Virus record (IMG/VR): IMGVR_UViG_2585427740_000001
Strand: one strand, 5' to 3'
Origin: a virus
Lineage: Duplodnaviria > Heunggongvirae > Uroviricota > Caudoviricetes
DNA length: 23,852 nt
The notes under the pieces are model-generated. The model made no database searches. It saw nothing but the letters and a program-made list of their open reading frames with translations, and had not been told where the DNA came from. The translations under genes were made by a program, and so were the position numbers. This document shows, one piece after another, positions 4,000 to 23,852 of this stretch (position 1 is its first letter; the number at the start of each line of letters is the position of its first letter).

Positions 4000-4063
4000 T
4001 ACATACTTCCTAGAGATAATTCTATGGAGGCATTAAATTAATACTGTCATTGGTAATATCATA

Positions 4064-5447: not shown

Positions 5448-5545
5448 CTTTCATTAATCCCTGAATTGTTGGTTAATACGCTTGAGGGTGAATGCGAATA
5501 ATAAAAAAGGAGCCTGTAGCTCCCTGATGATTTTGCTTTTCATGT

Positions 5546-5761: not shown

Positions 5762-5841
5762 TGAACAAGCCCCATGTCGGCAAGCATAAGCACACAGAAT
5801 ATGAAGCCCGCTGCCAGAAAAATGCATTCAGTGGTTGTCAT
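5758..5841 (-). CDS. Candidate 27-aa hydrophobic (single transmembrane) peptide MTTTECIFLAAGFIFCVLMLADMGLVQ
   Basis: ATG overlaps the TGA stop of the upstream 63-aa ORF (ATGA). Hydrophobic core of about 17 residues. Found by hand translation; below ORF-track cutoff. Confidence 0.35.
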   Translation of the reverse strand: MTTTECIFLAAGFIFCVLMLADMGLVQ

Positions 5842-6029
5842 ACCTGGTCTCTCTCATCTGCTTCTGCTTTCGCCACCATCATTTCCAGTTTTTGTGAAAG
5901 GGATGTGGCTAACGTATGAAATTCTTCGTCTGTTTCTACTGGTATTGGCACAAACCTGATTCCAATTTGAGCAAGGCTATGTGCCATCTCGATACTCGTT
6001 CTTAACTCAACAGGAGATGCTTTGTGCAT
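5838..6029 (-). CDS. Hypothetical protein, 63 aa, immediately downstream of exo in the leftward operon
   Basis: ORF with GAGG 6-8 nt upstream of ATG; same strand and spacing as the early-left operon genes. Confidence 0.55.
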   Translation of the reverse strand: MHKASPVELRTSIEMAHSLAQIGIRFVPIPVETDEEFHTLATSLSQKLEMMVAKAEADERDQV

Positions 6030-6180
6030 ACAGCCCCTCGTTTATTATTTATCTCCTCAGCCAGCCGCTGTGCTTTCAGTGGATTTCGGATAACAGAAAG
6101 GCCGGGAAATACCCAGCCTCGCTTTGTAACGGAGTAGACGAAAGTGATTGCGCCTACCCGGATATTATCGTGAGGATGCG

Positions 6181-6861
6181 TCATCGCCATTGCTCCCCAA
6201 ATACAAAACCAATTTCAGCCAGTGCCTCGTCCATTTTTTCGATGAACACCGGCACCATCTCGTCAAAACTCGCCATGTACTTTTCATCCCGCTCAACCAC
6301 GACATAATGCAGTCCTTCACGCTTCATACGCGGGTCATAGTTGGCAAAGTACCAGGCATCTTTTCGTGTCACCCACATGCTGTACTGCACCTGGGCCATG
6401 TAAGCCGACTTTATGGCCTCGAAACCACCGAGCCGGAACTTCATGAAATCCCGGGAGGTAAACGGGCATTTCAGCTCAAGGCCATTGCCGTCACTGCATA
6501 AACCATCGGGAGAGCAGGCGGTGCGCATACTTTCGTCGCGATAGATGATCGGGGATTCAGTAACATTCACGCCGGAAGTGAATTCAAACAGGGTTCTGGC
6601 GTCGTTCTCGTACTGTTTTCCCCATGCCAGCGCCTTAGCATTAACTTCCGGAGCCACACCGGTGCAAACCTCAGCCAGCAGGGTGTGGAAGTAGGACATT
6701 TTCATGTCAGGCCACTTCTTTCCTGAGCGGGGCTTGGCTATCACGTTGTGAACTTCTGAAGCGGTGATGACGCCGAGCCGTAATTTGTGCCATGCATCAT
6801 CCCCCTGTTCGACAGCTCTCACGTCGATCCCGGTACGCTGCAGGATAATGTCCGGTGTCAT
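6181..6861 (-). CDS. exo: Lambda exonuclease (Red-alpha)
   Basis: 226-aa translation ([30 protein letters not shown]...) matches lambda Exo as recalled. Confidence 0.97.
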
Positions 6862-7306
6862 GCTGCCACCTTCTGCTCAGTGGCTTTCTGTTTCAGGAAT
6901 CCAAGAGCTTTCACTGCTTCGGCCTGTGTCAGTTCTGACGATGCGCGAATGTCGCGGCGAAATATCTGGGAACAGAGCGGCAATAAGTCGTCATCCCATG
7001 TTTTGTCCAGGGCAATCAGCAGAGTGTTAATCTCCTGCATGGTTTCATCGTTAACCGGAGTAATGTCGCGTTCCGGCTGACGTTCTGCGGTGTATGCGGT
7101 ATTTTCGACAATGCGCTCGGCTTCATCCTTGTCATAGATACCAGCAAATCCGAAGGCCAGACGGGCACACTGAATCATGGCTTTATGCCGTAACATCCGT
7201 TTGGGATGCGACTGCCACGGCCCCGTAATTTCTCTGCCTTCGCGGGTTTTGAATGGTTCGCGGCGGCATTCATCCATCCATTCGGTAACGCAGATCGGAT
7301 GATTAC
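6858..7306 (-). pseudogene. bet: bet (Red-beta), 5'-truncated: only the C-terminal ~145 codons remain
   Basis: Translation from ...NHPICVTEWMDECRREPFKTREGREITGPWQSHPKRMLRH... to the C-terminus matches lambda Bet as recalled. The N-terminal ~115 codons are absent and the frame runs into ren-derived sequence on the opposite strand. Confidence 0.88.
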
Positions 7307-7426
7307 CGGTTCGCTACCAGGGAAGAACGGGAAGGAAAGGTGAGCACGAATCTGATTTTCAAGGAGTGTCGCCAGAGTGCCGCGATGAAGCGGGTGTTGG
7401 CATTTTATCGCGGCAATTTTCAATAG
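7304..7426 (+). pseudogene. ren: ren 3' fragment (last ~40 codons: YRFATREEREGKVSTNLIFKECRQSAAMKRVLAFYRGNFQ*)
   Basis: Plus-strand frame matches the recalled C-terminus of lambda Ren (...YYRFATREEREGKMSTNLVFKECRQSAAMKRVLAVYGVKR). It begins abruptly at the bet breakpoint. Confidence 0.7.
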
Positions 7427-7463
7427 ACTATGTACATAAAAATATCATTTTTTTAATACATGT

Positions 7464-7655
7464 CTAATTATTGGACGAAATTGGTTTTTGCTTTGGTTTA
7501 GTTAGCCTAGCAATCAAGCCAGAGGCAATAATGATGATCCAAGCAATTTGATGCAATGCTACTCCAATATAAGAACCTTTATAGATAATAAAGGCATAGA
7601 TCGCTAGAAACGAAATAAATATCCATAACGAAAGTTGATAAATTTTGGCGCGCAT
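7464..7655 (-). CDS. Possible small two-helix membrane protein (63 aa) in AT-rich insert
   Basis: ORF with two hydrophobic stretches; no convincing RBS; AT-rich DNA can yield spurious ORFs. Confidence 0.3.
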   Translation of the reverse strand: MRAKIYQLSLWIFISFLAIYAFIIYKGSYIGVALHQIAWIIIIASGLIARLTKPKQKPISSNN

Positions 7656-7911
7656 ATTTAATCCAATCAATCAGAAAGACGAGTAATCATAGAGGTACTA
7701 TCACCCGGGTAACTATTGCTATTATGAACGGATAGGATAGAGGCTTCAATAACATATGCATCAAGTATGATGGAATATGTAGGTGAAAATGACTTGTGTC
7801 AAATTTGTGGAAATGAGTACCATGTTTCTCTGAAATTGATGTCGTTAATGGCTAGTGATAGTGAACTTTTTTACTTTATAATTCCTTTGGTTATAACAAT
7901 AAGGTAAATTT

Positions 7912-8472
7912 ATGAAGAAGATAATATTATTAGCCATGATTATTGGTTCTTTAACAGGTTGCGCTAGTGTGCCACCATTGAATTTTTCAACACCTAACGT
8001 GGGAGTTAGCCAGAAAAAAATAGATGCTGAAATTAAGTCATTAACGGTATCACTTGCTCGTCCAGATGAGCAGAAAGGGGATATCACTGCTGGTATGGAG
8101 GCTATAACTCCAATTTGGCGTGAATCTTTGCAGGAAGCACTCGACCGAATGACTATTTTTCGTGATAGTTCACCAAATACGGTTAGCTTAAATGTTAAAG
8201 TGTTGGCTCTTGACGTTCCTGCTTTTGGTGTTTCAATGACAACTAAAGCAATTGCAAGGTATGAAATAATCAACCGTGCGAATGGTGATATTATATATAC
8301 GCAGGATATTGAGTCTACCGGTACTGTTCCAGCCAGTTACGCATTCTACGGTATTGTTCGAGCACGCGAATCTGTTAATCGCGCGGTGCAAAACAACATA
8401 ACGCAGTTCTTGCAAGCATTAGAAAGTGTTGATCTTTCTCGTCCAATGTTTCCTGTTAGGGTAGCTAAATGA
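7912..8472 (+). CDS. Lipoprotein, 186 aa (signal peptide with lipobox LTGC); function unknown
   Basis: MKKIILLAMIIGSLTGCAS... lipobox; AAGG RBS about 9 nt upstream. Stop overlaps the start of the next gene (ATGA). Confidence 0.8.
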   Translation: MKKIILLAMIIGSLTGCASVPPLNFSTPNVGVSQKKIDAEIKSLTVSLARPDEQKGDITAGMEAITPIWRESLQEALDRMTIFRDSSPNTVSLNVKVLALDVPAFGVSMTTKAIARYEIINRANGDIIYTQDIESTGTVPASYAFYGIVRARESVNRAVQNNITQFLQALESVDLSRPMFPVRVAK

Positions 8473-8921
8473 AGCGATTATTCGTAATTGCTCCACTCTT
8501 AGTGTTGGTTGGATGCGCACAAAATATATCGCCAAATAGTTATTCTGTTGGCTCTGTGGGCATGGTTAATCGAACTATCGCTGGTACAGTTATTAGTGCT
8601 AGGGGGGTTGATATCAGTGGGACTTCCGCGTTAGGCGGGACTGCTGGGGCTGCCGTGGGGGCAACCGCTGGTTCTGCGCTTGGTGGGGGAGTTCGTTCTA
8701 ATATCGTTGGTGCCGTTGGTGGTGCAGTCATTGGTGGTATTGCCGGGGCAGCAATCGAATCTTCAGCAACAAAACAAACAGGCATGGAATATGTTGTCGA
8801 AACTGAGAATGGGAATTTAATGACCATTGTTCAAGGCAAAGATCCGTTATTTACTCAAGGAAGTAAGGTCCTTGTTTTATACGGAAACCCTTCTCGCATA
8901 ATAACAGACCCGCGTCACTAA
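8469..8921 (+). CDS. SlyB/Pcp-like outer-membrane lipoprotein with glycine-zipper segment, 150 aa
   Basis: Lipobox LVGCAQ. Long Gly/Ala-rich zipper (GGTAGAAVGATAGSALGGGVRSNIVGAVGGAVIGGIAGAAIE) and a C-terminal region resembling SlyB as recalled. Translationally coupled to the upstream lipoprotein. Confidence 0.8.
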   Translation: MKRLFVIAPLLVLVGCAQNISPNSYSVGSVGMVNRTIAGTVISARGVDISGTSALGGTAGAAVGATAGSALGGGVRSNIVGAVGGAVIGGIAGAAIESSATKQTGMEYVVETENGNLMTIVQGKDPLFTQGSKVLVLYGNPSRIITDPRH

Positions 8922-9111
8922 CATACCTTTTGATTTTGTAAAATCAATTCGTAATAATAAAGTCATCGGAGCTTGAACAACTCCGGTGACTTCTGCGCTA
9001 AACGGGGACGTTTATGCGCACATACAATCCAAACTCTCTTCTCCCTTCACAGATGCAGAAATGCACCTGCGATTTTTTGCATCCAGCGTCTGACCTCTGC
9101 GGAGGTGAAGC

Positions 9112-9567
9112 GTGAACCTACCACAAGATGGCATCAAACTGCATCGCGGTAACTTCACCGCTATCGGCCAGCAGATCCAGCCTTATCTGGAGGACGGAAA
9201 ATGCTTTCGCATGGTGCTTAAACCGTGGCGTGAGAAACGCAGTCTTTCCCAGAATGCACTCAGCCACATGTGGTACAGCGAAATCAGTGAATACCTCATC
9301 AGCAGGGGGAAATCGTTCGCTACCGCAGCATGGGTAAAAGATGCTCTCAAACACACATACCTCGGTTATGAAACCAAGGACCTGGTTGATGTCGTAACCG
9401 GCGAAATCACTACTATCCAGTCGTTACGCCATACCTCCGATCTTGATACCGGAGAGATGTATATCTTCCTGTGTAAGGTTGAAGCCTGGGCGGTGAATAT
9501 TGGCTGCCACCTGACTATTCCGCAGAGCTGCGAGTTCCAGCAGCTCCGCGACAAACAGGAGGCGTAA
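9112..9567 (+). CDS. ybcN: NinB/YbcN-family DNA-binding protein
   Basis: 151-aa ORF from GTG with GGAGGTGA RBS. Translation matches DLP12 YbcN as recalled; sits in the NinB position of the nin region. Confidence 0.85.
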
Positions 9568-9737
9568 TGGCTACACCGCTTATTCGTGTCATGAACGGAC
9601 ACATCTACAGAGTACCAAATCGTCGTAAGCGTAAACCGGAGCTGAAGCCTTCCGAAATACCAACACTGCTCGGATATACCGCCAGCCTGGTTGATAAAAA
9701 ATGGTTGCGACTGGCAGCAAGGAGGAGTCATGGCTGA
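9567..9737 (+). CDS. ninE: NinE-family protein (56 aa)
   Basis: Hand translation [59 protein letters not shown] overlaps the ybcN stop (TAATG). Confidence 0.7.
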   Translation: MATPLIRVMNGHIYRVPNRRKRKPELKPSEIPTLLGYTASLVDKKWLRLAARRSHG

Positions 9738-10020
9738 TTTGAGAAAAGCAGCGCGTGGTCGGGAATGCCAGGTAAGAATCCCTGGCGTATGTAATGGCAA
9801 CCCTGAAACGTCTGTACTGGCACATATCCGGCTGACTGGATTGTGCGGCACCGGTACGAAACCGCCAGACCTGATTGCCACCATTGCATGTTCTGCCTGC
9901 CACGACGAAATCGACCGCCGCACACATTTTGTCGATGCTGCATATGCAAAAGAATGCGCGCTGGAAGGTATGGCGAGAACACAGGTTATCTGGCTGAAAG
10001 AGGGGGTTATTAAGGCGTGA
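9730..10020 (+). CDS. ybcO: YbcO-family protein (DUF1364, putative nuclease), 96 aa
   Basis: ORF-track ORF 9691-10020; likely start [14 protein letters not shown]... at ATG 9730 with AGGAGG upstream. Cys/His-rich motif. Matches DLP12 YbcO as recalled. Confidence 0.8.
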
Positions 10021-10379
10021 ATACCTACAGCATCACATTACCCTGGCCTCCGAGCAATAATCGCTATTACCGCCATAATCGCGGGCGCACACACATCAGC
10101 GCAGAAGGGCAGGCATACCGCGATAACGTCACCCGAATCATTAAAAACGCAATGCTGGATATCGGCCTGGCTATGCCAGTGAAAATCCGTATTGAGTGCC
10201 ACATGCCGGATCGCCGTCGCCGTGACCTGGATAATCTGCAAAAAGCCGCTTTTGACGCACTCACCAAAGCAGGTTTCTGGCTGGATGATGCTCAGGTCGT
10301 TGATTACCGCGTTGTGAAGATGCCTGTTACCAAAGGTGGGAGGCTGGAACTGACCATCACCGAAATGGGGAATGAATGA
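10017..10379 (+). CDS. rusA: RusA Holliday-junction resolvase
   Basis: 120-aa translation ([26 protein letters not shown]...) matches RusA as recalled. Confidence 0.95.
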
Positions 10380-10516
10380 TGTTTGAGTTTAATATGGCAG
10401 AACTTCTTCGCCACCGCTGGATGCGCCTGCGCTTATATCGTTTCCCCAGTTCTGTTTTGACCGATTACCGAATACTGAGGAATTACGCCAAAACCCTGAC
10501 AGGAGCAGGAGTATGA
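10376..10516 (+). CDS. ylcG: YlcG-family small protein (46 aa)
   Basis: Hand translation [49 protein letters not shown] overlaps the rusA stop. Confidence 0.6.
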
Positions 10517-10601
10517 AGTCAGAGATAACAATCAACTAATACTGTTTTATTGATTTTTGCTTGTAATTGGCGTTCTGGTCTGATTTTTGTGGAGTAAGTT
10601 G

Positions 10602-10985
10602 ATGCGTGATATTCAGATGGTTCTTGAGCGTTGGGGAGCGTGGGCGGCTAATAATCATGAAGATGTGACCTGGTCGTCCATTGCCGCCGGTTTTAAGGGA
10701 TTAATTACTTCAAAAGTAAAATCTCGCCCGCAATGTTGTGACGATGACGCGATGATCATTTGCGGGTGCATGGCCCGTCTGAAAAAGAACAACAGCGATT
10801 TGCACGATTTATTAGTAGATTATTATGTAGTCGGTATGACATTCATGTCACTGGCAGGTAAGCATTGCTGCTCTGATGGTTATATCGGGAAAAGGTTACA
10901 GAAGGCTGAGGGTATAATTGAAGGGATGTTAATGGCATTAGATATCCGGTTAGAGATGGATATCGTTGTTAATAACTCTAATTAA
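10602..10985 (+). CDS. Q: Late-gene antiterminator Q (QuuD-like, phage 82/21 type)
   Basis: 127 aa from ATG 10602 with GGAG RBS ([24 protein letters not shown]...). Matches DLP12 QuuD as recalled. Confidence 0.9.
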
Positions 10986-11102
10986 TATGCCAATTGTTTA
11001 CTAAAAATTATTAAAAATGGGGCGTTGAGACGCCCCCAAAAATAAAGGGTAATATATAACAGAAGGTTTATATAGTTAGAAGCAAGGTTGTGCTCCTAAA
11101 GG

Positions 11103-11165
11103 AAGTGGCTTGAGGGAGCCACTTATATGTTGGGGAGGCAAAGCCTCCCGCAACATATCTTTTAG
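11103..11165 (+). terminator. Two tandem stem-loops; the second (11125-11158, ~15-bp stem) is followed by CTTTTAG; candidate tR' of the late operon
   Basis: Inverted repeats AAGTGGCT/AGCCACTT and ATATGTTGGGGAGGC/GCCTCCCGCAACATAT read directly. Lies about 140 nt downstream of Q and just past the 3' end of the convergent porin gene. Confidence 0.5.
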
Positions 11166-11173
11166 TAATCAAA

Positions 11174-12256
11174 TTAGAACTGGTAAACCATACCTACAGC
11201 AACGATATCATCGGTAGCAACGCCAGATGCTTTCGTGAAATCGCTCTTATCAATCAGGTTGATTTTGTAATCAACAAAAGTGGACATATTTTTGTTGAAG
11301 TAATAGGTTGCACCTACATCAATATATTCAACCAGGTCCTGATCACCCCACGCACCCAAGTCTTTTCCTTTAGATTGCAGGTAAGCAACGGACGGACGCA
11401 GACCGAAGTCGAACTGATATTGTGCAACTACTTCGAAGTTTTGTGCTTTGTTGGCAATATGGTTATTACCAAAAACAGTCATGTTCTGGGTTTCAGAATA
11501 GGTGGTAGCCAGATAGATGTTGTTCGCATCATATTTCAGACCAGCTGCCCATACTTCAGCATTTTGACCAGATGCATTCAGGCTGTTGTTACCGTAGATA
11601 ACCTGATTATTAGTGCGGTCAGATTTAGCATAGGTTGCACCTACACCGAATCCTTCATACTCATAAGTAGTGGAGAAACCGAAACCATCACCATTAGCTT
11701 CAGTTACGTCAGTGCGGTCATTTTTACCCTGATACTGAGCAGCAAAGTTCAGACCATCAACCAGACCAAAGAAGTCATTGTTACGATAAGTTGCAACACC
11801 TGTGGTGCGACCAGTCATGAATACATCTGTTTGGGTCCAGGTATCGCCACCGAATTCTGGCAGAACGTCGGTCCATGCACCAATATCGTATGCTACACCG
11901 TAGTTACGGCCATAATCGATGGAGCCGTAGTCACCGAATTTCAGGCCAGCGAAGGCAAGACGGGTTTTATCTTTGGAGGAACCTTGAGATTCAGCGCGGT
12001 TGCCTTTGAATTCATATTCCCACTGACCGAAACCAGTCAGTTGATCGTTGATTTGGGTTTCACCTTTGAAGCCAAGACGGGCATAAGTAGTATCACCATC
12101 ATCTGCATCATTAGAGGAGAAGTAGTGCTTAGCATTAACTTTCCCGTACAGATCCAGCTTGTTACTGTCTTTATTATAAATTTCAGCTGCCTGAGCAGAC
12201 ATCGCCATCAGTACTGATGCAGCTACAGCAGAAATTGCCACTGTTAATTTTTTCAT
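11174..12256 (-). CDS. nmpC: General porin of the OmpC/OmpF/NmpC(Lc) family
   Basis: 360 aa from [23 protein letters not shown] (signal peptide) to the C-terminal ...VGMVYQF. Resembles NmpC/Lc as recalled. The ORF-track ORF extends 20 codons further upstream, judged spurious. Confidence 0.92.
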
Positions 12257-12682
12257 CGTGAGCCCTTTTTTTGAACTATTATTAAAAAATGATGTCACTG
12301 CGCGATAAATATTCATCTAATCAATGTGATTATTTCAAGATGTAAGTTTTGGTTTCTCATTTGATTTGTGAAGTAGATCTCTATTTTTATCTGAACTTTT
12401 TCTATCGAATCCTATTCATGGCTCTTGGCTGAATAAAAATAAATCTATTAGCCAATTTATATTAATGGCTGTTATTTATAAGTGCTCTATAATTTGAAGA
12501 TTCAATTTAAACCAGCTAAAAATAACGCTGGAAATTATTTGTTGGTTATTTGTTGAGATTTGCTTATGTATTTGTAGTGGTGTTTTCAATACTCGGTAGC
12601 ATTCTCGCAAATATCATTTAGTGGTTTACGTACGTAAAAAATTGGTTATGCTGTTAAGAGTGGTTACTTCGTCACACAGCTT

Positions 12683-12716
12683 AAACCCGCCGTCGAGCGG
12701 GTTTTTCCATTTTTTG
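12683..12716 (+). terminator. Intrinsic terminator-like hairpin (AAACCCGC-CGTCGA-GCGGGTTT) followed by TTCCATTTTTT
   Basis: Perfect 8-bp GC-rich stem and T-tract read directly. Lies in the AT-rich region between the porin start and S. Confidence 0.5.
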
Positions 12717-12843
12717 AGTCTCGATATTAGCTGATAACCCAATACCTGAGTTATTCACTGACTCCGAGTCTGTTACGTTTCTGCTTTTTTGCGATACGTT
12801 GTATTCCCTCAATTTACACCCGCTTTGTCTGCGAGGTGGGGTT

Positions 12844-13059
12844 ATGAAATCCATGGATAAGTTAACAACGGGTGTCGCCTATGGCACCTCAGCAGGTAGT
12901 GCCGGTTACTGGTTTTTACAGCTGCTCGATAAAGTCACGCCCTCACAGTGGGCAGCAATAGGTGTGCTGGGTAGCCTGGTATTTGGCCTGCTGACGTACC
13001 TGACAAACCTTTATTTCAAGATTAAAGAAGATAAGCGCAAGGCTGCGAGAGGTGAATAA
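12844..13059 (+). CDS. S: Class II holin (phage 21 S-type pinholin) with dual-start motif MKSMDK
   Basis: Translation [71 protein letters not shown] resembles S21 as recalled. Two Met codons three codons apart; two TM segments. Confidence 0.9.
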
Positions 13060-13556
13060 TGCCTCCATCATTACGAAAAGCCGTTGCTGCTGCTATTGGT
13101 GGCGGAGCAATTGCTATAGCATCAGTGTTAATTACTGGCCCAAGTGGTAACGATGGTCTGGAAGGTGTCAGCTACGTACCATACAAAGATATCGTTGGCG
13201 TATGGACTGTATGTCACGGACACACCGGAAAAGACATCATGCTCGGTAAAACGTATACCAAAGCAGAATGCAAAGCACTCTTGAATAAAGACCTTGCCAC
13301 TGTCGCCAGACAAATTAACCCGTACATCAAAGTCGATATACCGGAAACAACGCGCGGCGCTCTTTACTCATTCGTTTACAACGTGGGTGCTGGCAATTTC
13401 AGAACATCGACGCTTCTTCGCAAAATAAACCAGGGCGATATCAAAGGCGCATGTGATCAGCTACGTCGCTGGACATATGCTGGCGGTAAGCAATGGAAAG
13501 GTCTCATGACTCGTCGTGAGATTGAGCGTGAAATCTGTTTGTGGGGTCAGCAATGA
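13059..13556 (+). CDS. R: SAR endolysin (T4-lysozyme-like muramidase with N-terminal signal-anchor-release domain)
   Basis: 165 aa with a Gly/Ala-rich weakly hydrophobic N-terminus ([20 protein letters not shown]) followed by a lysozyme-like core. Start overlaps the holin stop. Confidence 0.92.
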
Positions 13557-14014
13557 ACAGAGTAACCGCGATTATCTCCGCTCTGGTTATCTGCATCATC
13601 GTCTACCTGTCATGGGCTGTTAATCATTACCGTGATAACGCCATTACCTACAAAGCCCAGCGCGACAAAAATGCCAGAGAACTGAAGCTGGCGAACGCGG
13701 CAATTACTGACATGCAGATGCGTCAGCGTGATGTTGCTGCGCTCGATGCAAAATACACGAAGGAGTTAGCTGATGCGAAAGCTGAAAATGATGCTCTGCG
13801 TGATGATGTTGCCGCTGGTCGTCGTCGGTTGCACATCAAAGCAGTCTGTCAGTCAGTGCGTGAAGCCACCACCGCCTCCGGCGTGGATAATGCAGCCTCC
13901 CCCCGACTGGCAGACACCGCTGAACGGGATTATTTCACCCTCAGAGAGAGGCTGATCACTATGCAAAAACAACTGGAAGGAACCCAGAAGTATATTAATG
14001 AGCAGTGCAGATAG
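13553..14014 (+). CDS. Rz: Rz inner-membrane spanin subunit
   Basis: 153 aa, N-terminal TM then coiled coil. ATG overlaps the R stop (ATGA). Confidence 0.85.
13773..13955 (+). CDS. Rz1: Rz1 outer-membrane lipoprotein spanin subunit, embedded in the +1 frame of Rz
   Basis: 60 aa with lipobox VVGCTS and proline-rich segment (PPPPPAW...PPPDW). AGGAG RBS 8 nt upstream. Lies entirely inside Rz. Confidence 0.8.
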
Positions 14015-14045
14015 AGTTGCCCATATCGATGGGCAACTCATGCAA

Positions 14046-14339
14046 TTATTGTGAGCAATACACACGCGCTTCCAGCGGAGTATAAATGCCTAAAGTAATA
14101 AAACCGAGCAATCCATTTACGAATGTTTGCTGGGTTTCTGTTTTAACAACATTTTCTGCGCCGCCACAAATTTTGGCTGCATCGACAGTTTTCTTCTGCC
14201 CAATTCCAGAAACGAAGAAATGATGGGTGATGGTTTCCTTTGGTGCTACTGCTGCCGGTTTGTTTTGAACAGTAAACGTCTGTTGAGCACATCCTGTAAT
14301 AAGCAGGGCCAGCGCAGTAGCGAGTAGCATTTTTTTCAT
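14046..14339 (-). CDS. bor: Bor lipoprotein (serum-resistance-associated)
   Basis: 97-aa translation MKKMLLATALALLITGCAQQTFTVQNKPAAVAPKETITHHFFVSGIGQKK... matches lambda Bor as recalled. Confidence 0.92.
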   Translation of the reverse strand: MKKMLLATALALLITGCAQQTFTVQNKPAAVAPKETITHHFFVSGIGQKKTVDAAKICGGAENVVKTETQQTFVNGLLGFITLGIYTPLEARVYCSQ

Positions 14340-14629
14340 GGTGTTATTCCCGATGCTTTTTGAAGTTCGCAGAATCGTATGTGTAGAAAATTAAACAAAC
14401 CCTAAACAATGAGTTGAAATTTCATATTGTTAATATTTATTAATGTATGTCAGGTGCGATGAATCGTCATTGTATTCCCGGATTAACTATGTCCACAGCC
14501 CTGACGGGGAACTTCTCTGCGGGAGTGTCCGGGAATAATTAAAAACGATGCACACAGGGTTTAGCGCGTACACGTATTGCATTATGCCAACGCCCCGGTG
14601 CTGACACGGAAGAAACCGGACGTTATGAT

Positions 14630-15040
14630 TTAGCGTGGAAAGATTTGTGTAGTGTTCTGAATGCTCTCAGTAAATAGTAATGAATTATCAAAGGTATAGT
14701 AATATCTTTTATGTTCATGGATATTTGTAACCCATCGGAAAACTCCTGCTTTAGCAAGATTTTCCCTGTATTGCTGAAATGTGATTTCTCTTGATTTCAA
14801 CCTATCATAGGACGTTTCTATAAGATGCGTGTTTCTTGAGAATTTAACATTTACAACCTTTTTAAGTCCTTTTATTAACACGGTGTTATCGTTTTCTAAC
14901 ACGATGTGAATATTATCTGTGGCTAGATAGTAAATATAATGTGAGACGTTGTGACGTTTTAGTTCAGAATAAAACAATTCACAGTTTAAATCTTTTCGCA
15001 CTTGATCGAATATTTCTTTAAAAATGGCAACCTGAGCCAT
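14630..15040 (-). CDS. ybcV: YbcV-family protein (DUF1398)
   Basis: 136 aa from [24 protein letters not shown]... matching DLP12 YbcV as recalled. The ORF-track ORF extends to 15163; the upstream 41 codons are judged non-coding. Confidence 0.8.
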
Positions 15041-15325
15041 TGGTAAAACCTTCCATGTGATACGAGGGCGCGTAGTTTGCATTATCGTTTTTATCGTTTC
15101 AATCTGGTCTGACCTCTTTGTGTTTTGTTGATGATTTATGTCAAATATTAGGAATGTTTTCACTTAATAGTATTGGTTGCGTAACAAAGTGCGGTCCTGC
15201 TGGCATTCTGGAGGGAAATACAACCGACAGATGTATGTAAGGCCAACGTGCTCAAATCTTCATACAGAAAGATTTGAAGTAATATTTTAACCGCTAGATG
15301 AAGAGCAAGCGCATGGAGCGACAAA

Positions 15326-15532
15326 ATGAATAAAGAACAATCTGCTGATGATCCCTCCGTGGATCTGATTCGTGTAAAAAATATGCTTAATAGCACCATT
15401 TCTATGAGTTACCCTGATGTTGTAATTGCATGTATAGAACATAAGGTGTCTCTGGAAGCATTCAGAGCAATTGAGGCAGCGTTGGTGAAGCACGATAATA
15501 ATATGAAGGATTATTCCCTGGTGGTTGACTGA
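15326..15532 (+). CDS. ybcW: YbcW-family small protein (68 aa)
   Basis: Translation [40 protein letters not shown]... matches YbcW as recalled. Confidence 0.75.
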
Positions 15533-15696
15533 TCACCATAACTGCTAATCATTCAAACTATTTAGCCTGTGACAGAGCCAACACGCAGTCTGTCACTGTC
15601 AGGAAAGTGGTAAAACTGCAACTCAATTACTGCAATGCCCTCGTAATTAAGTGAATTTACAATATCGTCCTGTTCGGAGGGAAGAACGCGGGATGT

Positions 15697-15891
15697 TCAT
15701 TCTTCATCACTTTTAATTGATGTATATGCTCTCTTTTCTGACGTTAGTCTCCGACGGCAGGCTTCAATGACCCAGGCTGAGAAATTCCCGGACCCTTTTT
15801 GCTCAAGAGCGATGTTAATTTGTTCAATCATTTGGTTAGGAAAGCGGATGTTGCGGGTTGTTGTTCTGCGGGTTCTGTTCTTCGTTGACAT
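15697..15891 (-). CDS. ylcI: YlcI-family protein (DUF3950), 64 aa
   Basis: Translation MSTKNRTRRTTTRNIRFPNQMIEQINIALEQKGSGNFSAWVIEACRRRL... matches YlcI as recalled. Confidence 0.75.
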   Translation of the reverse strand: MSTKNRTRRTTTRNIRFPNQMIEQINIALEQKGSGNFSAWVIEACRRRLTSEKRAYTSIKSDEE

Positions 15892-16059
15892 GAGGTTGCC
15901 CCGTATTCAGTGTCGCTGATTTGTATTGTCTGAAGTTGTTTTTACGTTAAGTTGATGCAGATCAATTAATACGATACCTGCGTCATAATTGATTATTTGA
16001 CGTGGTTTGATGGCGTAGATGCACGTTGTGACATGTAGATGATAATTATTATCATTTTT

Positions 16060-16279
16060 CGGGTCCTTTCCGGCGATCCGACAGGTTACGGGGCGGCGAC
16101 CTCGCGGGTTTTCGCTATTTATGAAAATTTTCCGGTTTAAGGCGTTTCCGTTCTTCTTCGTCATAACTTAATGTTTTTATTTAAAATACCCTCTGAAAAG
16201 AAAGGAAGCGACAGGTGCTGAAAGCGAGCTTTTTGGCCTCTGTCGTTTCCTTTCTCTGTTTTTGTCCGTGGAATGAACA
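16060..16279. other. cos: cos site: cosN with 12-nt cohesive end GGGCGGCGACCT at 16091-16102, followed by cosB (terminase small-subunit binding region) up to the nu1 start
   Basis: Sequence ...CGACAGGTTACG GGGCGGCGACCT CGCGGGTTTTCGCTATTTATGAAAATTTTCCGGTTTAAGGCG... matches the recalled lambda genome ends joined at cos. Confidence 0.88.
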
Positions 16280-16795
16280 ATGGAAGTCAACAAAAAGCAG
16301 CTGGCTGACATTTTCGGTGCGAGTATCCGTACCATTCAGAACTGGCAGGAACAGGGAATGCCCGTTCTGCGAGGCGGTGGCAAGGGTAATGAGGTGCTTT
16401 ATGACTCTGCCGCCGTCATAAAATGGTATGCCGAAAGGGATGCTGAAATTGAGAACGAAAAGCTGCGCCGGGAGGTTGAAGAACTGCGGCAGGCCAGCGA
16501 GGCAGATCTCCAGCCAGGGACTATTGAGTACGAACGCCATCGACTTACGCGTGCGCAGGCCGACGCACAGGAACTGAAGAATGCCAGAGACTCCGCTGAA
16601 GTGGTGGAAACCGCATTCTGTACTTTCGTGTTGTCGCGGATCGCAGGTGAAATTGCCAGTATTCTCGACGGGATCCCCCTGTCGGTGCAGCGGCGTTTTC
16701 CGGAACTGGAAAACCGACATGTTGATTTCCTGAAACGGGATATCATCAAAGCCATGAACAAAGCAGCCGCGCTGGATGAACTGATACCGTTATGA
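16280..16795 (+). CDS. nu1: Terminase small subunit Nu1, C-terminally altered (171 aa; the last ~10 residues of lambda Nu1 are replaced by a single L and a stop)
   Basis: Translation MEVNKKQLADIFGASIRTIQNWQEQGMPVLRGGGKGNEVLYDSAAVIKWYAERD... matches lambda Nu1 through ...AALDELIP, then diverges at about 16789. Confidence 0.9.
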   Translation: MEVNKKQLADIFGASIRTIQNWQEQGMPVLRGGGKGNEVLYDSAAVIKWYAERDAEIENEKLRREVEELRQASEADLQPGTIEYERHRLTRAQADAQELKNARDSAEVVETAFCTFVLSRIAGEIASILDGIPLSVQRRFPELENRHVDFLKRDIIKAMNKAAALDELIPL

Positions 16796-16817
16796 GTTTA
16801 CGGATACGCTGGGGCTG

Positions 16818-17222
16818 GTGACGTCATTCAGCTATGCAGGAGACAAGAATCGCCAGCTGACCCATTACAGCGATACCCGCTGGCATGAAGATTCCGTTCG
16901 TAACCGCTGGTTCAGCGTAATGGCGGGGCCGTCTGTGCGCGTGAATGAATGGTTCAGCGCGTATGCGATGGCGGGTGTGGCTTACAGCCGTGTGTCGACT
17001 TTCTCCGGGGATTATCTCCGCGTAACTGACAACAAGGGGAAAACGCACGACGTGCTGACCGGAAGTGATGACGGTCGCCACAGCAACACGTCTCTGGCGT
17101 GGGGAGCTGGCGTGCAGTTTAACCCGACCGAATCCGTGGCCATTGATATTGCTTATGAAGGCTCCGGCAGTGGCGACTGGCGCACTGACGGTTTCATCGT
17201 GGGTGTCGGTTATAAGTTCTGA
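16818..17222 (+). pseudogene. lom: lom (Ail/Lom/PagC-family outer-membrane protein), 3' fragment lacking signal peptide and proper start
   Basis: C-terminal ...SVMAGP...AYAMAGVA...IAYEGSGSGDWRTDGFIVGVGYKF matches the lambda Lom C-terminus as recalled. Upstream sequence is nu1; no ATG or signal peptide. Confidence 0.85.
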
Positions 17223-17250
17223 TTAGCCAGGTAACACAGTGTTATGACAG

Positions 17251-17276
17251 CCCGCCGGTTCAGGCGGGCTTTTTTG
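17251..17276 (+). terminator. Rho-independent terminator (GCCCGCC-GGTTCAG-GCGGGC followed by TTTTTT)
   Basis: Perfect GC-rich hairpin plus T6, read directly. Immediately downstream of the lom fragment. Confidence 0.85.
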
Positions 17277-17286
17277 TGGGGTGAAT

Positions 17287-20250
17287 ATGGCAGTAAAGAT
17301 TTCAGGTGTACTGAAAGACGGCACAGGAAAACCGGTACAGAACTGCACAATCCAGCTGAAAGCAAAACGTAACAGCACCGCGGTGGTGGTGAACACGCTG
17401 GCCTCAGAAAATCCGGATGAAGCCGGGCGTTACAGCATGGACGTTGAGTACGGTCAGTACAGCGTTATTCTGTTGGTGGAAGGATTCCCGCCGTCACATG
17501 CCGGGACCATCACCGTGTATGAAGATTCCCGACCCGGTACGCTGAATGATTTTCTCGGTGCCATGACGGAGGATGATGCCCGTCCGGAGGCTCTGCGCCG
17601 TTTTGAACTGATGGTGGAAGAGGTGGCGCGTAACGCGTCCGCAGTGGCACAGAACACGGCAGCCGCGAAGAAGTCAGCCAGTGATGCCAGCACATCTGCC
17701 AGTGAGGCGGCAACTCATACAACCGATGCTGCAGGCTCAGCTCGTGCCGCCAGCACGTCAGCCGGACAGGCTGCATCATCTGCTCAGTCAGCATCTTCCA
17801 GCGCAGGAACGGCATCAACAAAGGCCAGTGAAGCATCGAAAAGTGCTGCTGCTGCAGAGTCCTCAAAAAGCGCGGCAGCTACCAGTGCCGCTGCGGCGAA
17901 AACGTCAGAAACGAATGCGGCAGCGTCACAACAATCAGCAGCCACTTCTGCATCCGCCGCGACCACGAAGGCGTCAGAAGCTGCCACCTCAGCCCGGGAT
18001 GCGGCGGCCTCAAAAGAGGCGGCAAAATCATCAGAAACGAGCGCAGCCTCGAGCGCCAGTAGTGCAGCCTCCTCGGCAACAGCGGCAGGAAATTCCGCGA
18101 AGGCGGCAAAAACGTCCGAGACGAACGCTAAGTCTTCTGAGACGGCAGCAGCACAGAGTGCCTCCGCAGCAGCAGACTCAAAAACAGCGGCTGCCTCATC
18201 TGCCAGCGCCGCGTCAACAAATGCCGGGCAGGCCTCAGCCAGTGCCACCGCTGCCGGAAAGTCGGCAGAAAGCGCCGCATCATCCGCTTCAACAGCCACA
18301 ACGAAGGCTGGCGAAGCCACTGAACAGGCCACGGCAGCAGCGAGGTCAGCTTCCGCAGCGAAGACATCCGAAACGAACGCGAAAGCGTCGGAAACCAGCG
18401 CAGAATCCTCAAAAACGGCTGCCGCATCGTCAGCCAGTTCGGCGGCGTCATCGGCATCATCGGCGTCTGCTTCAAAAGATGAGGCGACCAGACAGGCGTC
18501 AGCAGCGAAGGGCAGCGCCACGACGGCATCCACGAAGGCGACAGAGGCAGCTGGCAGTGCGACGGCGGCAGCTCAGAGCAAAAGTACGGCGGAATCCGCG
18601 GCAACGCGCGCCGAGACAGCAGCAAAACGGGCAGAGGATATTGCATCCGCCGTGGCGCTTGAGGATGCGAGCACGACGAAAAAGGGGATAGTACAGCTCA
18701 GCAGTGCGACTAACAGCACTTCCGAGTCACTGGCGGCAACGCCAAAAGCCGTTAAGGCCGCGTATGAGCTGGCTAACGGGAAATACACCGCACAGGATGC
18801 AACGACAGCACAGAAAGGGATAGTTCAGCTTAGCAACGCGACCAACAGCACATCTGAAATGCTGGCGGCAACGCCAAAGTCGGTAAAGGCAGCCTATGAC
18901 CTTGCTAACGGGAAATATACTGCTCAGGACGCTACGACAGCACAAAAAGGAATTGTCCAGCTCAGTAGTGCAACCAACAGCGCATCTGAAACGCTTGCCG
19001 CGACACCGAAAGCAGTGAAAGCAGCTAATGATAATGCGAATGGTCGGGTACCTTCTGCCCGTAAGGTGAATGGTAAGGCGCTTTCAGCGGATATAACACT
19101 GACGCCGAAAGATATTGGTACGCTTAACTCAACAACAATGTCATTCAGCGGTGGTGCTGGTTGGTTCAAATTAGCAACGGTAACCATGCCACAGGCGAGT
19201 TCTGTTGTTTCAATTACGTTGATTGGTGGCGCGGGATTTAACGTGGGGTCACCTCAACAGGCAGGTATATCTGAACTTGTTTTGCGTGCAGGTAATGGTA
19301 ATCCGAAGGGGATTACTGGTGCTTTATGGCAGCGCACATCGACAGGGTTTACAAATTTTGCCTGGGTCAATACATCTGGTGATACTTACGATATTTACGT
19401 TGCAATCGGAAATTATGCGACTGGTGTAAATATTCAATGGGATTATACCAGTAATGCCAGCGTGACGATTCATACGTCACCAGCATATTCTGCTAATAAG
19501 CCGGAAGGGTTAACGGACGGTACAGTTTATTCACTCTATACGCCATCAGAGCAGTTTTATCCGCCTGGCGCACCAATCCCGTGGCCATCAGATACCGTTC
19601 CGTCTGGCTATGCCCTGATGCAGGGGCAGACTTTTGACAAATCTGCATACCCGAAACTTGCAGCCGCTTATCCGTCAGCCGTGATCCCTGATATGCGTGG
19701 CTGGACGATTAAGGGCAACCCCGCCAGTGGTCGTGCCGTATTGTCTCAGGAACAGGACGGCATTAAATCGCACACCCACAGCGCCAGCGCATCCAGTACG
19801 GATTTGGGGACGAAAAACACATCGTCGTTTGATTACGGAACCAAATCCACGAATAACACCGGGGCGCATACCCATAGTATTAGCGGGACTGCAAATAGTG
19901 CCGGTGCGCACCAACACAAGAGTTCCGGTGCATTTGGTGGCACGAACACGAGCATTTTCCCTAATGGTTATACCGCGATTTCAAATCTAAGCGCGGGGAT
20001 TATGAGCACAACAAGCGGTAGTGGCCAGACTCGTAATGCAGGGAAGACATCATCAGATGGTGCTCATACCCACTCGCTGTCCGGCACTGCTGCAAGCGCA
20101 GGCGCACATGCACATACTGTCGGTATTGGTGCTCATACGCACTCCGTTGCGATTGGCTCACACGGACACACCATCACCGTTAACGCTGCTGGTAACGCGG
20201 AAAACACCGTCAAAAACATCGCATTTAACTATATTGTGAGGCTTGCATAA
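17287..20250 (+). CDS. stf: Side tail fibre protein Stf (about 987 aa from ATG 17287), with long Ala/Ser/Thr-rich low-complexity region, three ~43-aa tandem repeats and a His-rich C-terminal domain
   Basis: N-terminus [30 protein letters not shown]... and C-terminus ...[11 protein letters not shown] match lambda Stf as recalled. ORF-track ORF begins 2 codons upstream at GTG. Confidence 0.92.
18673..19050 (+). repeat. Three tandem ~129-132-nt repeats inside stf (unit encodes [19 protein letters not shown](S/M)[12 protein letters not shown](E/D)[11 protein letters not shown])
   Basis: Repeated peptide and nucleotide blocks starting near 18673, 18802 and 18934, read directly. Confidence 0.8.
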
Positions 20251-20831
20251 TGGCATTCAGAATGAGTGAACAACCACGGACCATAAAAATTTATAATCTG
20301 CTGGCCGGAACTAATGAATTTATTGGTGAAGGTGATGCATATATTCCGCCTCATACAGGTCTGCCAGCAAACAGTACCGATATTGCACCGCCAGATATTC
20401 CGGCTGGCTTCGTGGCTGTTTTCAACAGTGATGAGTCATCGTGGCATCTTGTTGAAGACCATCGGGGTAAAACAGTTTATGACGTGGCATCAGGGGACGC
20501 GTTATTTATTTCTGAACTCGGCTCATTACCGGAAAATGTTACCTGGTTATCCCCGGAAGGGGAGTTTCAGAAGTGGAACGGCACAGCCTGGGTGAAGGAT
20601 ACGGAAGCAGAAAAACTGTTCCGGATCCGGGAGGTGGAAGAAACAAAAAACAGCCTGATGCAGGTAGCCAGTGAGCATATAGCGCCGCTTCAGGATGCTG
20701 TGGATCTGGAGATCGCAACGGAGGAAGAAACCTTGTTGCTGGAAGCCTGGAAAAAGTATCGGGTATTGCTGAACCGTGTTGATACGTCAACTGCACAGGA
20801 TATTGAATGGCCAGTAGCACCTATAGGGTAA
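20250..20831 (+). CDS. tfa: Tail fibre assembly chaperone Tfa
   Basis: 193-aa translation [51 protein letters not shown]... matches lambda Tfa as recalled. ATG overlaps the stf stop. Confidence 0.95.
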
Positions 20832-21689
20832 ATTCGTAATGATTACCTAAATACGTTATTCTTTTGTTCAAAAAGTGATTTTGCTATAGATAGGGAGTAT
20901 GTTCTTGGATTAAGAATAAAAATCGCCATGAAAGAGCTTCATGGCGAGTACATAAACGTACAAAATGTGATGAAAGTAGAGTGGCGTAAGCCACTATATT
21001 AAGATGTGACAATAGCGAAGAAAAGTAAATAACATTTTATGGACGTTTAATTGTTAATTATAAAAACTAGAGTGCCCGATATTGTTTACCTTGCTTTAAA
21101 ATAATGTACTCAAACCAAATTTTTGAGCTAAAAGCTCAAATAATATAAATGCAATAATAATGTTTAATAAGACAATTAGCTTGCTTTGTATTTTCATTTC
21201 GGAATACTGTTAAGTAACTTTGATGACCCTAACAATAGATCGGAATTTTCTTAGAGTCAATGGTCACTGTTTTTGCTTGCAAAGCAAATGTTTTGGTGGT
21301 TATAAGTTGTCTTAATATAGTCACGCATGCAACTTGTTCCATGCGGAGATTAAAGATTGGAATATAACGCTAAGATGGAATTAAATTACATTTGCAATAA
21401 TCAATTTATTATTACTCAATAATTACCGATATTATTATTGTAAATTAATCATTAGAGTGCAAAAAGAAATGTAACGGCAAAATAAGAGGACGATAGCTGA
21501 GAAAAAAGCGTGCTTTCCCAATCTGGGGCAAATCACGTCTGAATGACACCTGAAAACAGGTGGTAGCCTCAAGAAGGCTTGGAATATTCTTCTTTAATGT
21601 TATGTAATTCATTGATTTTTCGTGTACGATTTAAAGACATTTATTCCAAGAAAAATTTTTAACTCTTTGATTTTTCGACTCTGTATCAT

Positions 21690-21751
21690 CGGTCTCGAAA
21701 ACCGGAGTAGGGGCAACTCTACCGGGGGTTCAAATCCCCCTCTCTCCGCCA
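21690..21751 (+). other. 3' fragment (~62 nt) of tRNA-Ser(CGA): anticodon stem-loop, variable arm, T-arm and acceptor 3' end with CCA; 5' half absent
   Basis: CGGTCTCGAAAACCGGAGTAGGGGCAACTCTACCGGGGGTTCAAATCCCCCTCTCTCCGCCA matches the recalled 3' portion of E. coli serU-type tRNA-Ser. The preceding sequence cannot form the acceptor/D arms. Confidence 0.75.
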
Positions 21752-22335
21752 CTTTATCAATGACTTATCTCCCGACTTCCCGCCTTGCTTTTCCTAAACA
21801 GAACAATCGTAGAATATTCTTGAAGGGTTAGATCGTCACTGTTTTCTGTTCGATACTGTGACATTCAGCACTTGATTCGCTATGGATCTGACAGGAAGGT
21901 TTTGAGCGAAAATTTGCAGTTATTCAGTCGTTTTCTTATCGGTCACCATTATTCTTTTAGACATTGATCCTACAAAGCTGCCGCAAAGTTGGTGGTGGGA
22001 ACTGAAGTTGCGTAGAGAAGGGGTCAATACCCGGAGGCAAACATGGGCTGGCAAAAGTGTAGCGGTATTAGGCGCAGCTATTTAGCCTAGTTATGTTTTA
22101 TGAAAACTTGATATCATATAAGTGTCTTACTTATTGGCTGTAAATAAGTTTTTCCTAAGGAATTGTTTCTTGAGTATCATTTGTAACTGTAACGGAATTT
22201 ATAATCCTTTGCTTTATTGTTACGGTATTTTTTATCACACCCTATTTTTTATGTGGTTTTTTATACTGAAGTTTGGCAAAGTGAACTTTATATGCATATA
22301 CTTCATCCTGGTTTCAGTTAAGTTGGGTGGATGAT

Positions 22336-23079
22336 ATGGCAACTACATGTTCAGTTATATTGATTTTGGAGTCCTTTGATGTTTATTTCGGAAAAGAGAG
22401 TGTGTTTCTGGAGAGAGGTTCATCTGTACTTGTCGACTCTAGCTCTAGAGATTTTTTCCTGACATATCCTGAAAGAGTGATAGTGGCGGATTTTGGCGCT
22501 GAGTTTATTAGTCGCTATTTGAAAGCTAATAACTTAAGGGATATTTCTGATTGTAGGGAATATCCATCTTATTTAAAAATAAACTTTGCTGACTTCAGTT
22601 TAATTAAAGGATTAATTAGTTGGGCTAATCACTGTGCTGAATACATAGAAATTTTTGATGAGTCTATTGCTTTTACATGTCTCTCTGCATTTTCTTCTGA
22701 AAAACAATTTGGAGTATTTCTGTTTGAATGTTTGAAAAGCACAGGGGCTAAAGTTAAAACGATTATTCATACGGATTTATCTGCACCATGGCGTCTTAAG
22801 GATATATCATCAAGATTATATCTCAGCGAAAGTTTACTAAAGAGGAAATTGAAAGAAGAGGGGGTATCATTCAGTAAGATCATACTTGATGAGAGGATGC
22901 AAATGGCTGAATATTTACTCAGCACTCGTTGTTATCCTATTAGTAAAGTAGCTAAGGTCTGTGGTTATGCCAGTGTCTCATACTTTACTTATGTATTTAG
23001 ACGTTATTTTGGTGTTTCTCCAAGTCAATACTCTCAGAGCAGTTCAGAAAGTAAAATTCTTACTCACCAGGGAATCTGA
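22336..23079 (+). CDS. AraC/XylS-family transcriptional regulator (AppY/EnvY-like), about 247 aa
   Basis: C-terminal AraC-type HTH signature (...WRLKDISSRLYLSESLLKRKLKEEGVSFSKIILDERMQMAEYLL...KVCGYASVSYFTYVFRRYFGVSPSQY). Low-GC gene; in-frame GTG 3 codons upstream is the ORF-track start. Confidence 0.85.
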   Translation: MATTCSVILILESFDVYFGKESVFLERGSSVLVDSSSRDFFLTYPERVIVADFGAEFISRYLKANNLRDISDCREYPSYLKINFADFSLIKGLISWANHCAEYIEIFDESIAFTCLSAFSSEKQFGVFLFECLKSTGAKVKTIIHTDLSAPWRLKDISSRLYLSESLLKRKLKEEGVSFSKIILDERMQMAEYLLSTRCYPISKVAKVCGYASVSYFTYVFRRYFGVSPSQYSQSSSESKILTHQGI

Positions 23080-23590
23080 TCATTGTTCTTGCCCCCTTAT
23101 TTCCAGACAGGGGGTGTATCTTAAGTTAACGTTACCCGCTGACGTCGATATTCTCGCGGAGAGCGATAACCCAACGCACTGTGCGGATGGTTTTCATTGT
23201 AATGTTCGATCGCCACTGCAAGATTATGCAATGCCGTTCTTACATTCGGTTTCGGCATGAACGCGATGTAGTCTTCCTTCATCGTTTTCACGAACCTTTC
23301 TGCCATTCCATTACTCTGAGGACTGCTGATTGCCGTTGTGCAGGGCTCCAGATTCAACTCTCTGGCGAACTGCCATGTTTCATGCGCTCTATACGCTGAA
23401 CCGTTATCTGTCAGCCACTGGATGGACTGTTCCGGTACTTTATCGCCAAAGCGTTTTTCTATCGCTCCTAACATGACATCCTGCACTGTCGCTTTATCGT
23501 AACCTCCCGTGCTTGCGGCCCAGTCTATGGCTTCACGATCGCAACAGTCCAGGGCGAACGTAACACGCAGTTTTGAATCGCCACGGGTTT
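23077..23590 (-). mobile_element. IS2-like (IS3 family) element fragment: terminal region plus 3' part of the transposase orfB
   Basis: Terminal sequence TTGCCCCCTTATTTCCAGACA resembles the recalled IS2 end. The orfB C-terminal translation matches IS2 InsD as recalled (...TVQDVMLGA...WLTDNGS.Y...[12 protein letters not shown]). Confidence 0.7.
23121..23585 (-). pseudogene. IS2-like transposase orfB, C-terminal ~155 codons only (5' part removed)
   Basis: ORF-track ORF 23121-23486 continues open upstream to a TAA at about 23586 (…[34 protein letters not shown]…). No orfA or N-terminal orfB upstream on this strand. Confidence 0.75.
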
Positions 23591-23630
23591 AACAGACACC
23601 TCAGAGTCATTTAAGATGGCTTAAAGAGAG

Positions 23631-23852
23631 GTGCCCATGAGCGGTAAGCGTTATCCCGAAGAGTTTAAAACTGAAGCAGTCAAACAGGTTGTTGATCGCG
23701 GTTATTCTGTTGCCAGCGTTGCAACACGTCTCGATATCACCACCCACAGCCTTTATGCCTGGATAAAGAAGTACGGTCCGGATTACTCCACTTTTTCATC
23801 AAGCCAATCCGCCCACCACTGCATCATTTCTCTGCGCTTATCGAGATACTGA
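23631..23852 (+). CDS. IS3-family transposase OrfA-like HTH protein (N-terminal part typical; C-terminus atypical, possibly disrupted)
   Basis: MSGKRYPEEFKTEAVKQVVDRGYSVASVATRLDITTHSLYAWIKKYGPD resembles IS3-family OrfA HTH domains. RBS AGAGAGGTGCCC-ATG. Opposite orientation to the IS2-like orfB fragment. Confidence 0.6.
   Translation: MPMSGKRYPEEFKTEAVKQVVDRGYSVASVATRLDITTHSLYAWIKKYGPDYSTFSSSQSAHHCIISLRLSRY

Follow-up and report, generated by a model that had tools for sequence, protein, structure and literature searches.

Introduction

Duplications of tRNA 3' ends, which represent attR sites, are found at the boundaries of prophages and genomic islands; in E. coli K-12 these include the pseudo-tRNAs pauD (argU, DLP12), ptwF (thrW, CP4-6) and pawZ (argW, CPS-53). 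The specialised transducing phages lambda-bio and lambda-gal, in turn, belong to classical lambda genetics. Cargo genes at the ends of prophages are usually credited to imprecise excision; to our knowledge, a direct sequence trace of such an excision is rarely pointed out.

Regulators of the AraC family are among the cargo ('moron') genes carried at prophage ends; they include PatE (z0321, on OI-8) of E. coli O157:H7, PsrA/PsrB, and AppY of DLP12 (PMC10877973, PMC10057817). PatE is an activator of acid resistance and a repressor of the LEE (PMC10877973).

Here we describe an orphan 3' fragment of the tRNA gene serU lying inside a prophage, in a stretch of viral DNA of 23,852 nucleotides (IMG/VR record IMGVR_UViG_2585427740_000001; hereafter the window). 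The fragment and its flanks appear to form a fossil attachment site of another phage, situated directly ahead of a block of DNA that carries an AraC-family regulator. A limited literature search returned no description of a fossil serU junction upstream of an AraC gene.

The serU fragment

A reading made from the sequence alone had described the last ~62 nt of a serU-type tRNA-Ser(CGA), lacking a 5' half and lying between tfa and an AraC-family regulator. Alignment confirmed this description: positions 21690–21751 (+) correspond to positions 29–90 of K-12 serU, a tRNA-Ser with anticodon CGA, with 62/62 identities (CGGTCTCGAAAACCGGAGTAGGGGCAACTCTACCGGGGGTTCAAATCCCCCTCTCTCCGCCA), and the neighbouring genes are indeed tfa (20250–20831) and the AraC gene (22336–23079). 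The K-12 gene is 90 nt long and annotated as tRNA-Ser (2911–3000 in the compared K-12 stretch). The first base of the fragment is the second on the 5' side of the anticodon stem, and its last bases are CCA; in between come the anticodon loop with CGA, the long variable arm, the T arm and the 3' strand of the acceptor stem. The exact match ends at base 62 counted from CCA, the window base preceding it being unlike the tRNA, and of the 5' half of serU 0 of 28 nt are present at the fragment. A chance origin is excluded, since the exact match spans 62 nt.

The sequence-only reading had allowed for the fragment proving to be part of a complete tRNA on re-examination. No such tRNA was called: ARAGORN reported 0 tRNA genes in the whole window, and Rfam at gathering thresholds gave a single match, to the family IS009 within tfa, and none to a tRNA. 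A permissive Rfam scan of 21500–22100 likewise gave no tRNA match; it returned partial matches of T-arm type or to tRNA-like families, all below threshold. On these three scans a complete tRNA was rejected. A second copy of the repeat, or a nested element within the window, was rejected as well, because neither strand of the window contains a further 12-mer of serU.

The resident prophage

The window, which E. coli PEC1009 matches at 100% identity, extends from ybhC (1–1284, minus strand) to just before ybhB, which is the classical att-lambda site. A lambda att core (GCTTTTTTATACTAA), recognised by sequence match and gene context, adjoins ybhC at 1331–1345 (+) and is the attL of the present prophage; the matching lambda attR core lies ~225 nt beyond the end of the window, before ybhB, and has 1 mismatch. 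The integrase (1419–2489, minus strand, 356 aa) is essentially lambda Int, matched over its full length (PDB 5j0n/1z1g, E ~1e-236), and is not serU-specific; the int region of the window is 99% identical to that of phage ev099. The resident element is a lambda-att prophage, and its own integration is unrelated to serU. The sequence-only reading had suggested looking for a P4-type integrase, and none is involved: the integrase natively found next to serU is that of a lambdoid prophage, and the one present here is lambda Int at att-lambda. Lambda Int being the sole integrase of the window, a P4-type or any serU-type integrase nearby was rejected.

The tail-fibre end of the prophage (16784–20831, +) consists of a lom remnant, stf (17281–20250) and tfa (20250–20831), a right-end module common to serU-resident lambdoid prophages and ev099. 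The Rfam match to IS009 mentioned above is full length (20593–20791, +; 218 bits, E 1e-53) and lies wholly within the tfa coding sequence; it probably reflects the use of prophage tfa genes to define a candidate sRNA family, and not an independent RNA gene. Other cargo comprises an OmpC/NmpC-like porin gene (11174–12316, minus strand) between Q and the lysis genes, bor (14046–14339, minus strand) and the truncated lom (16818–17222, +). The central window carries the gene set of DLP12: ybcN, ninE, ybcO, rusA, ylcG, quuD, essD, rrrD, rzpD, ybcV, ybcW, ylcI and nohD. In other strains the same att-lambda prophage is found in different states of deletion.

A displaced attR of a serU phage

Both flanks of the fragment can be traced to the serU locus. 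The segment on its left (20832–21689, +) is a non-coding, AT-rich stretch of 858 nt that corresponds to the P, or phage, arm of an attR. At least 80% of its length is present in 272 genomes and any part of it in 1429. Its last 195 nt (21495–21689) recur directly left of the serU repeat in serU-resident prophages, for example in ST131, and the partial matches, among those listed, span this same interval. The full 858-nt arm is located at ~2.0–2.1 Mb in strains such as APEC E12049.

The segment on the right (21752–22029, +) is a captured chromosomal flank, or B' side: 278 nt of the intergenic region from serU to yodB. It matches 5405 of the 5426 complete E. coli genomes, and where the flank occurs by itself the identity, among the matches listed, is 91.7–98.9%. 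In K-12 this sequence stands directly 3' of serU within the spacer preceding yodB, so that core and flank together align with K-12 over 340 nt at 97.4%. The K-12 match stops at 22029, where the window reads ...GGTCAATA up to the joint and CCCGGAGG beyond it. The base composition changes in steps (GC content: P arm 31%, core 61%, flank 41%, spacer beyond the flank 30%, AraC gene 35%), which is consistent with a patchwork origin. The annotated stretches of ST131 and APEC E12049 have no yodB between the serU flank and zinT; the gene is present in K-12 and MB15. The region downstream of serU is itself polymorphic near the point at which the captured flank ends.

A native counterpart of this arrangement is provided by APEC E12049, in which a prophage occupies serU. 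The order there is mtfA, serU, a tyrosine integrase gene, a DUF4224 gene, and, further on, J, lom, stf, tfa, the 858 nt, the 62-nt repeat, the host flank and zinT. Over 20045–22029 the right end of this prophage and the window are colinear at 97.0%, and a further part of the window, 16784–18746, matches at 91.7%. At the attL of APEC E12049 stands an intact serU whose variable arm is phage-derived and carries two compensatory changes (AGTGGGGGCAACTCCACC), whereas the attR repeat has retained the host allele (AGTAGGGGCAACTCTACC). From this split of alleles between the two ends, the crossover took place 5' of tRNA position 47, within the anticodon stem-loop region. The fragment in the window likewise carries the host allele, and thus represents a displaced, host-derived copy of serU. 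The attL gene itself (4420–4509 of the compared stretch) is a chimera, in which the 3' part supplied by the phage turns an A-T pair of the variable arm into G-C; the double change being compensatory, the cell uses a phage-edited and still paired tRNA-Ser(CGA).

On these alignments, 20832–22029 is a complete attR, with P arm, core and B' flank all present, that belonged to a lambdoid phage integrating into serU and now lies far from that gene. The identity with the tRNA is exact from the anticodon arm through the 3' end (62/62); the phage arm on the 5' side is that of native serU lysogens (20045–21689 against the right end of the APEC E12049 prophage); and on the 3' side stand 278 nt of the native chromosomal spacer between serU and yodB. 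The fragment had been proposed to be the footprint of a tRNA-targeting integrase, a proposal that this colinearity of P arm, core and serU-downstream DNA with native lysogens bears out. The partner attL, with an intact tRNA and a cognate integrase, is absent from the other end of the element. The attR(serU) is therefore an orphan: the left end of the prophage is a lambda attL with lambda Int, there is no other 12-mer of serU, and neither an int gene of serU type nor a P' arm is found. When the P'–int–xis region of a serU prophage was used as the query in blastn and tblastx searches of the window and of ev099, no matches were returned.

The same junction in phage genomes

The junction is also present in sequenced phages. 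Genomes of ev099 (NC_049953), mEp332 (PV340541) and PhiR70_1 (PV340577) match 88–100% of 20250–23852 at 98.5–98.9% identity; ev099 and mEp332 match the whole of 20001–23852 (3.85 kb) at 98.5–98.8%. In these two lambda-like phages the block falls in the accessory b region (tfa, attR(serU), cargo, lambda attP, int); for ev099 the full order runs J, lom, stf, tfa, the fragment, the AraC gene, IS remnants, the lambda attP core, int and xis. Phage mEp332 has lambda immunity, and plaque formation has served as its assay (PMC3442831).

Starting at the att core, the window follows ev099 collinearly through int, xis, exo, the nin region, Q, the porin gene and the lysis genes to cos and the small terminase subunit; what comes next in the window is lom, followed by stf, tfa and the b region. 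The difference is explained by two deletions, one of ~7.2 kb corresponding to 32204–39379 of ev099 (immunity and replication) and one of ~18.5 kb corresponding to 689–19219 (head and tail). At the first joint (~7293–7310) remnants of recT and ren are fused, and N, cI, cro, O and P are lost; the second (16784–16789) connects the end region of nohD, the small-terminase gene, with the interior of lom, and the head and tail genes are lost. The window is thus a decayed phage of the ev099/mEp332 type that integrated at att-lambda, with the fossil attR already aboard when it lysogenised. Since the genomes of ev099 and mEp332 carry the same junction, the junction is older than the integration seen here.

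These genomes have two features of a transducing-type phage. Bacterial DNA adjoins a hybrid att site inside all three phage genomes, and the P' arm, int and xis of the original phage are gone from the far side of that site in the window and in ev099. A donor chromosome in which the cargo adjoins the serU attachment site was not found in the searches described below.

The IS630 scar and the AraC cargo block

Immediately beyond the captured flank lies a 55-nt piece of an IS630-family element (22030–22084, +), recognised by sequence match and derived from near the 3' end of the IS. It corresponds to the last 34 nt of the transposase gene and 22 nt past the gene. An IS630 terminus was considered as the cause of the joint at 22029/22030 and rejected, the 55-nt piece being internal to the IS. 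Because it falls inside the IS, the joint is a scar of rearrangement or deletion.

An AT-rich spacer (22085–22335, +; 30% GC) separates this piece from the regulator. It holds one sigma-70-like site (22273–22302), which is a consensus match alone and amounts to no more than is expected by chance. The regulator gene itself (22336–23079, +) encodes an AraC-family protein of 247 aa with the Pfam domains HTH_AraC and HTH_18. It is followed by IS3-family remnants on both strands (23121–23783), namely an rve_3 integrase-core fragment (23121–23573, minus strand) and an HTH_Tnp_1 transposase N-terminal part (23637–23783, +). These end the cargo block ahead of the lambda attP/attR.

The same block behind a second serU phage arm

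In E. coli O157:H7 F8492 the block occurs in a different setting. The match covers 21689–23557 at 99.3%, AraC gene included, and sits in a prophage remnant next to thrW, between a GIY-YIG gene and a P4-like element. It begins 1 base ahead of the 62-nt core, and the 40-mer across the breakpoint (22011–22050) is identical. The AraC gene of the O157:H7 thrW prophage is probably PatE, to judge by its location and one review. A chimeric query in which the GIY-YIG arm was followed by the core and the K-12 flank through yodB matched 7 genomes over at least 80% of its length. In strain MB15 an e14/SfV-like myovirus prophage at serU, with sheath, baseplate and pinE genes, has the GIY-YIG arm as its right end. 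By this comparison the left arm in O157:H7 is a genuine serU attR arm.

The captured copies in the window, ev099, mEp332 and O157:H7 differ from one another at 0–3 of 340 positions. Derived bases at alignment columns 314, 315 and 318 are present in all four of them, as compared with three native flanks. These shared bases, together with the identical breakpoint at 22029/22030, argue for a single origin of the block formed by the core, the 278-nt flank, the IS630 piece and the AraC gene. The block is now found joined to arms from two serU phages that are unrelated to each other, one lambda-like and the other a myovirus.

A related arrangement is seen in the thrW prophage remnant of AR_0369 (4560–4760 of the compared stretch). 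There the first 11–15 nt of the serU core (CGGTCTCGAAA) follow the GIY-YIG arm; unrelated cargo comes next, and the sequence rejoins that shared with O157:H7 further right. This remainder of the core may reflect either a cargo swap or later deletion with its breakpoint in the core, or ancestral microhomology.

Origin of the orphan attachment site

We consider it probable, at about 0.8, that the fragment represents a fossil attR core, left by a lambdoid phage that had inserted into serU by means of a tyrosine integrase, and that it is a relic of aberrant excision. An ancestral serU prophage would have excised aberrantly, in the manner of lambda-bio, taking with it the attR and adjacent host DNA; tfa, the P arm, the core and the B' flank would have been kept, and P', int and xis lost. 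An IS-associated deletion may then have joined the remaining 278 nt of host flank to the IS630 remnant and the AraC (PatE-like) gene. Recombination with a lambda-type phage could have brought in a new attP–int–xis module and so restored lysogeny, now at att-lambda. An ev099-like phage of this kind then integrated between ybhC and ybhB and lost its immunity and replication genes and its head and tail genes, as the window shows.

The donor side of this history was sought in two ways. With a chimeric query, an intact serU contiguous with the junction of flank and AraC block was found in 0 of 5426 complete E. coli genomes, in a search whose coverage of prophage-occupied serU loci was not exhaustive; on this count, a native serU locus bearing an AraC island without a prophage was rejected. 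The exact AraC protein was placed in its genomic setting in 10 sampled cases, all of them at att-lambda, so that this route likewise offered no donor at the serU locus. Owing to these two results (0/5426 junctions, 10/10 contexts), excision in a single step lacks an observed donor configuration, and at least one further rearrangement is needed because the joint of flank to cargo lies inside the IS630 remnant. The coupling of the block to a second arm also goes beyond one excision. It would be explained by one of three events: a second capture, homologous recombination over the 340 bp of identity, or Int-mediated recombination at the core.

The last of these events leads to the rather unlikely proposal that the orphan attR(serU) is a live landing pad, still a recombination site for serU integrases, at which other serU phages integrate or swap arms and thereby move the AraC block. 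The anticodon stem-loop and the P arm are complete; the same block, from the core through the 278 nt and the IS630 piece to the AraC gene, is joined exactly at the core to two different serU attR arms; and there is a precedent in Sp10, which integrated into the attR of Rac (PMC2669165). Against it, the window contains neither a hybrid P–core–P' site nor a tandem serU phage, the core is mutated in some copies, and the swap of arms could just as well be due to homologous recombination across the 340 bp of identity, or to two captures independent of each other. Similarly doubtful is the extension of this idea, in which the orphan attR(serU) would be a portable active site through which the serU integrases of unrelated phages exchange a cassette with a PatE-like regulator of acid resistance and virulence. 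If true, it would mean integrase-mediated shuffling of cassettes between phage families, here a lambda-like siphovirus and an e14/SfV-like myovirus, beyond homologous mosaicism.

It is far less probable still that the fragment is a scar formed in situ, where an island or phage targeting serU entered the prophage already at att-lambda and was later deleted, leaving one repeat. The IS remnants and the foreign, AT-rich AraC gene that adjoin the fragment would suit such an event; yet free phage genomes show the same arrangement, behind the fragment stand 278 nt of serU-locus chromosome, which an inserting element would not have brought, and the repeat is a single copy with no cognate integrase. 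The sequence-only reading had left open whether this part of the prophage was acquired from an element formerly at serU or had been interrupted by one. The former stands, and with it the mosaic boundary; the latter does not, given the single copy and the lack of a cognate integrase and a P' arm.

Single changes are seen in orphan copies elsewhere, in both strains and phages. A G-to-C change lies in the anticodon stem of the mEp332 copy, CT is replaced by TC in the anticodon loop of L023, an A-to-G change affects one strand of the variable arm in L019, and TT is replaced by GG in the T loop of strain E2. All four changes are uncompensated, which argues for neutral decay, with neither purifying selection nor tRNA function; neutrality is here suggested by a handful of variants. 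A scan for promoters and terminators around the fragment gave nothing beyond chance. That the fragment is a functional tRNA-like RNA or a regulatory element, for instance a 3' tRNA-like structure acting on expression of the downstream AraC gene, is the least credible of the explanations considered. Its T arm and acceptor 3' strand are intact and there are weak, sub-threshold Rfam matches to tRNA-like families, but no tRNA was called, the 5' strand of the acceptor stem is missing, the AraC start is ~585 nt downstream, and the substitutions in the T loop (TT to GG) and the anticodon stem (G to C) of other copies break the structure. The fragment does not act as a tRNA and most likely has no function of any kind, being neutral passenger DNA at the left edge of the cargo block.

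Comparison with known systems

The integration of Sp10 into the attR of Rac shows an attR serving as the substrate of an incoming integrase (PMC2669165); no such integration was seen at the site in the window. PatE, PsrA/PsrB and AppY resemble the present regulator in that an AraC-family gene, rich in AT, lies at the tail-fibre end of a lambdoid prophage. Reports on them concern the function of the regulator, whereas the feature described here is structural, a fossil serU junction upstream of the gene. The arrangement is found in sequenced phages and in many decayed att-lambda prophages. It leaves an explicit trace, consisting of an old attR and 278 nt of serU-side chromosome between the tail-fibre genes and the AraC-family regulator, and so gives a dated, testable history of how this regulator, probably PatE, became phage-borne. 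It is otherwise an ordinary relic with no evident present function. The regulator belongs to a family of known medical interest.

Like the tRNA 3' duplications of prophage and island boundaries, the fragment reproduces its target tRNA exactly from the anticodon arm to the 3' end, was made by a tyrosine integrase, and has a phage arm on one side and chromosome on the other. Unlike them, it lies away from the tRNA locus and from the boundary of its element, its attL and integrase are missing, and it travels in phage genomes, including that of the plaque-forming mEp332. For annotators, this means that a tRNA 3' fragment need not mark a current island boundary.

As in lambda-bio and lambda-gal, a hybrid att site is contiguous with bacterial DNA from the attachment site, and the phage's own int side is gone. 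The serU case differs from these in being natural and old, in having only 278 nt of host DNA left, in that a lambda attP–int–xis module restored integration, and in that its excision is inferred. It is a clear natural example in which a tRNA 3' duplication and a lambda-bio-type genome, both classical, are combined.
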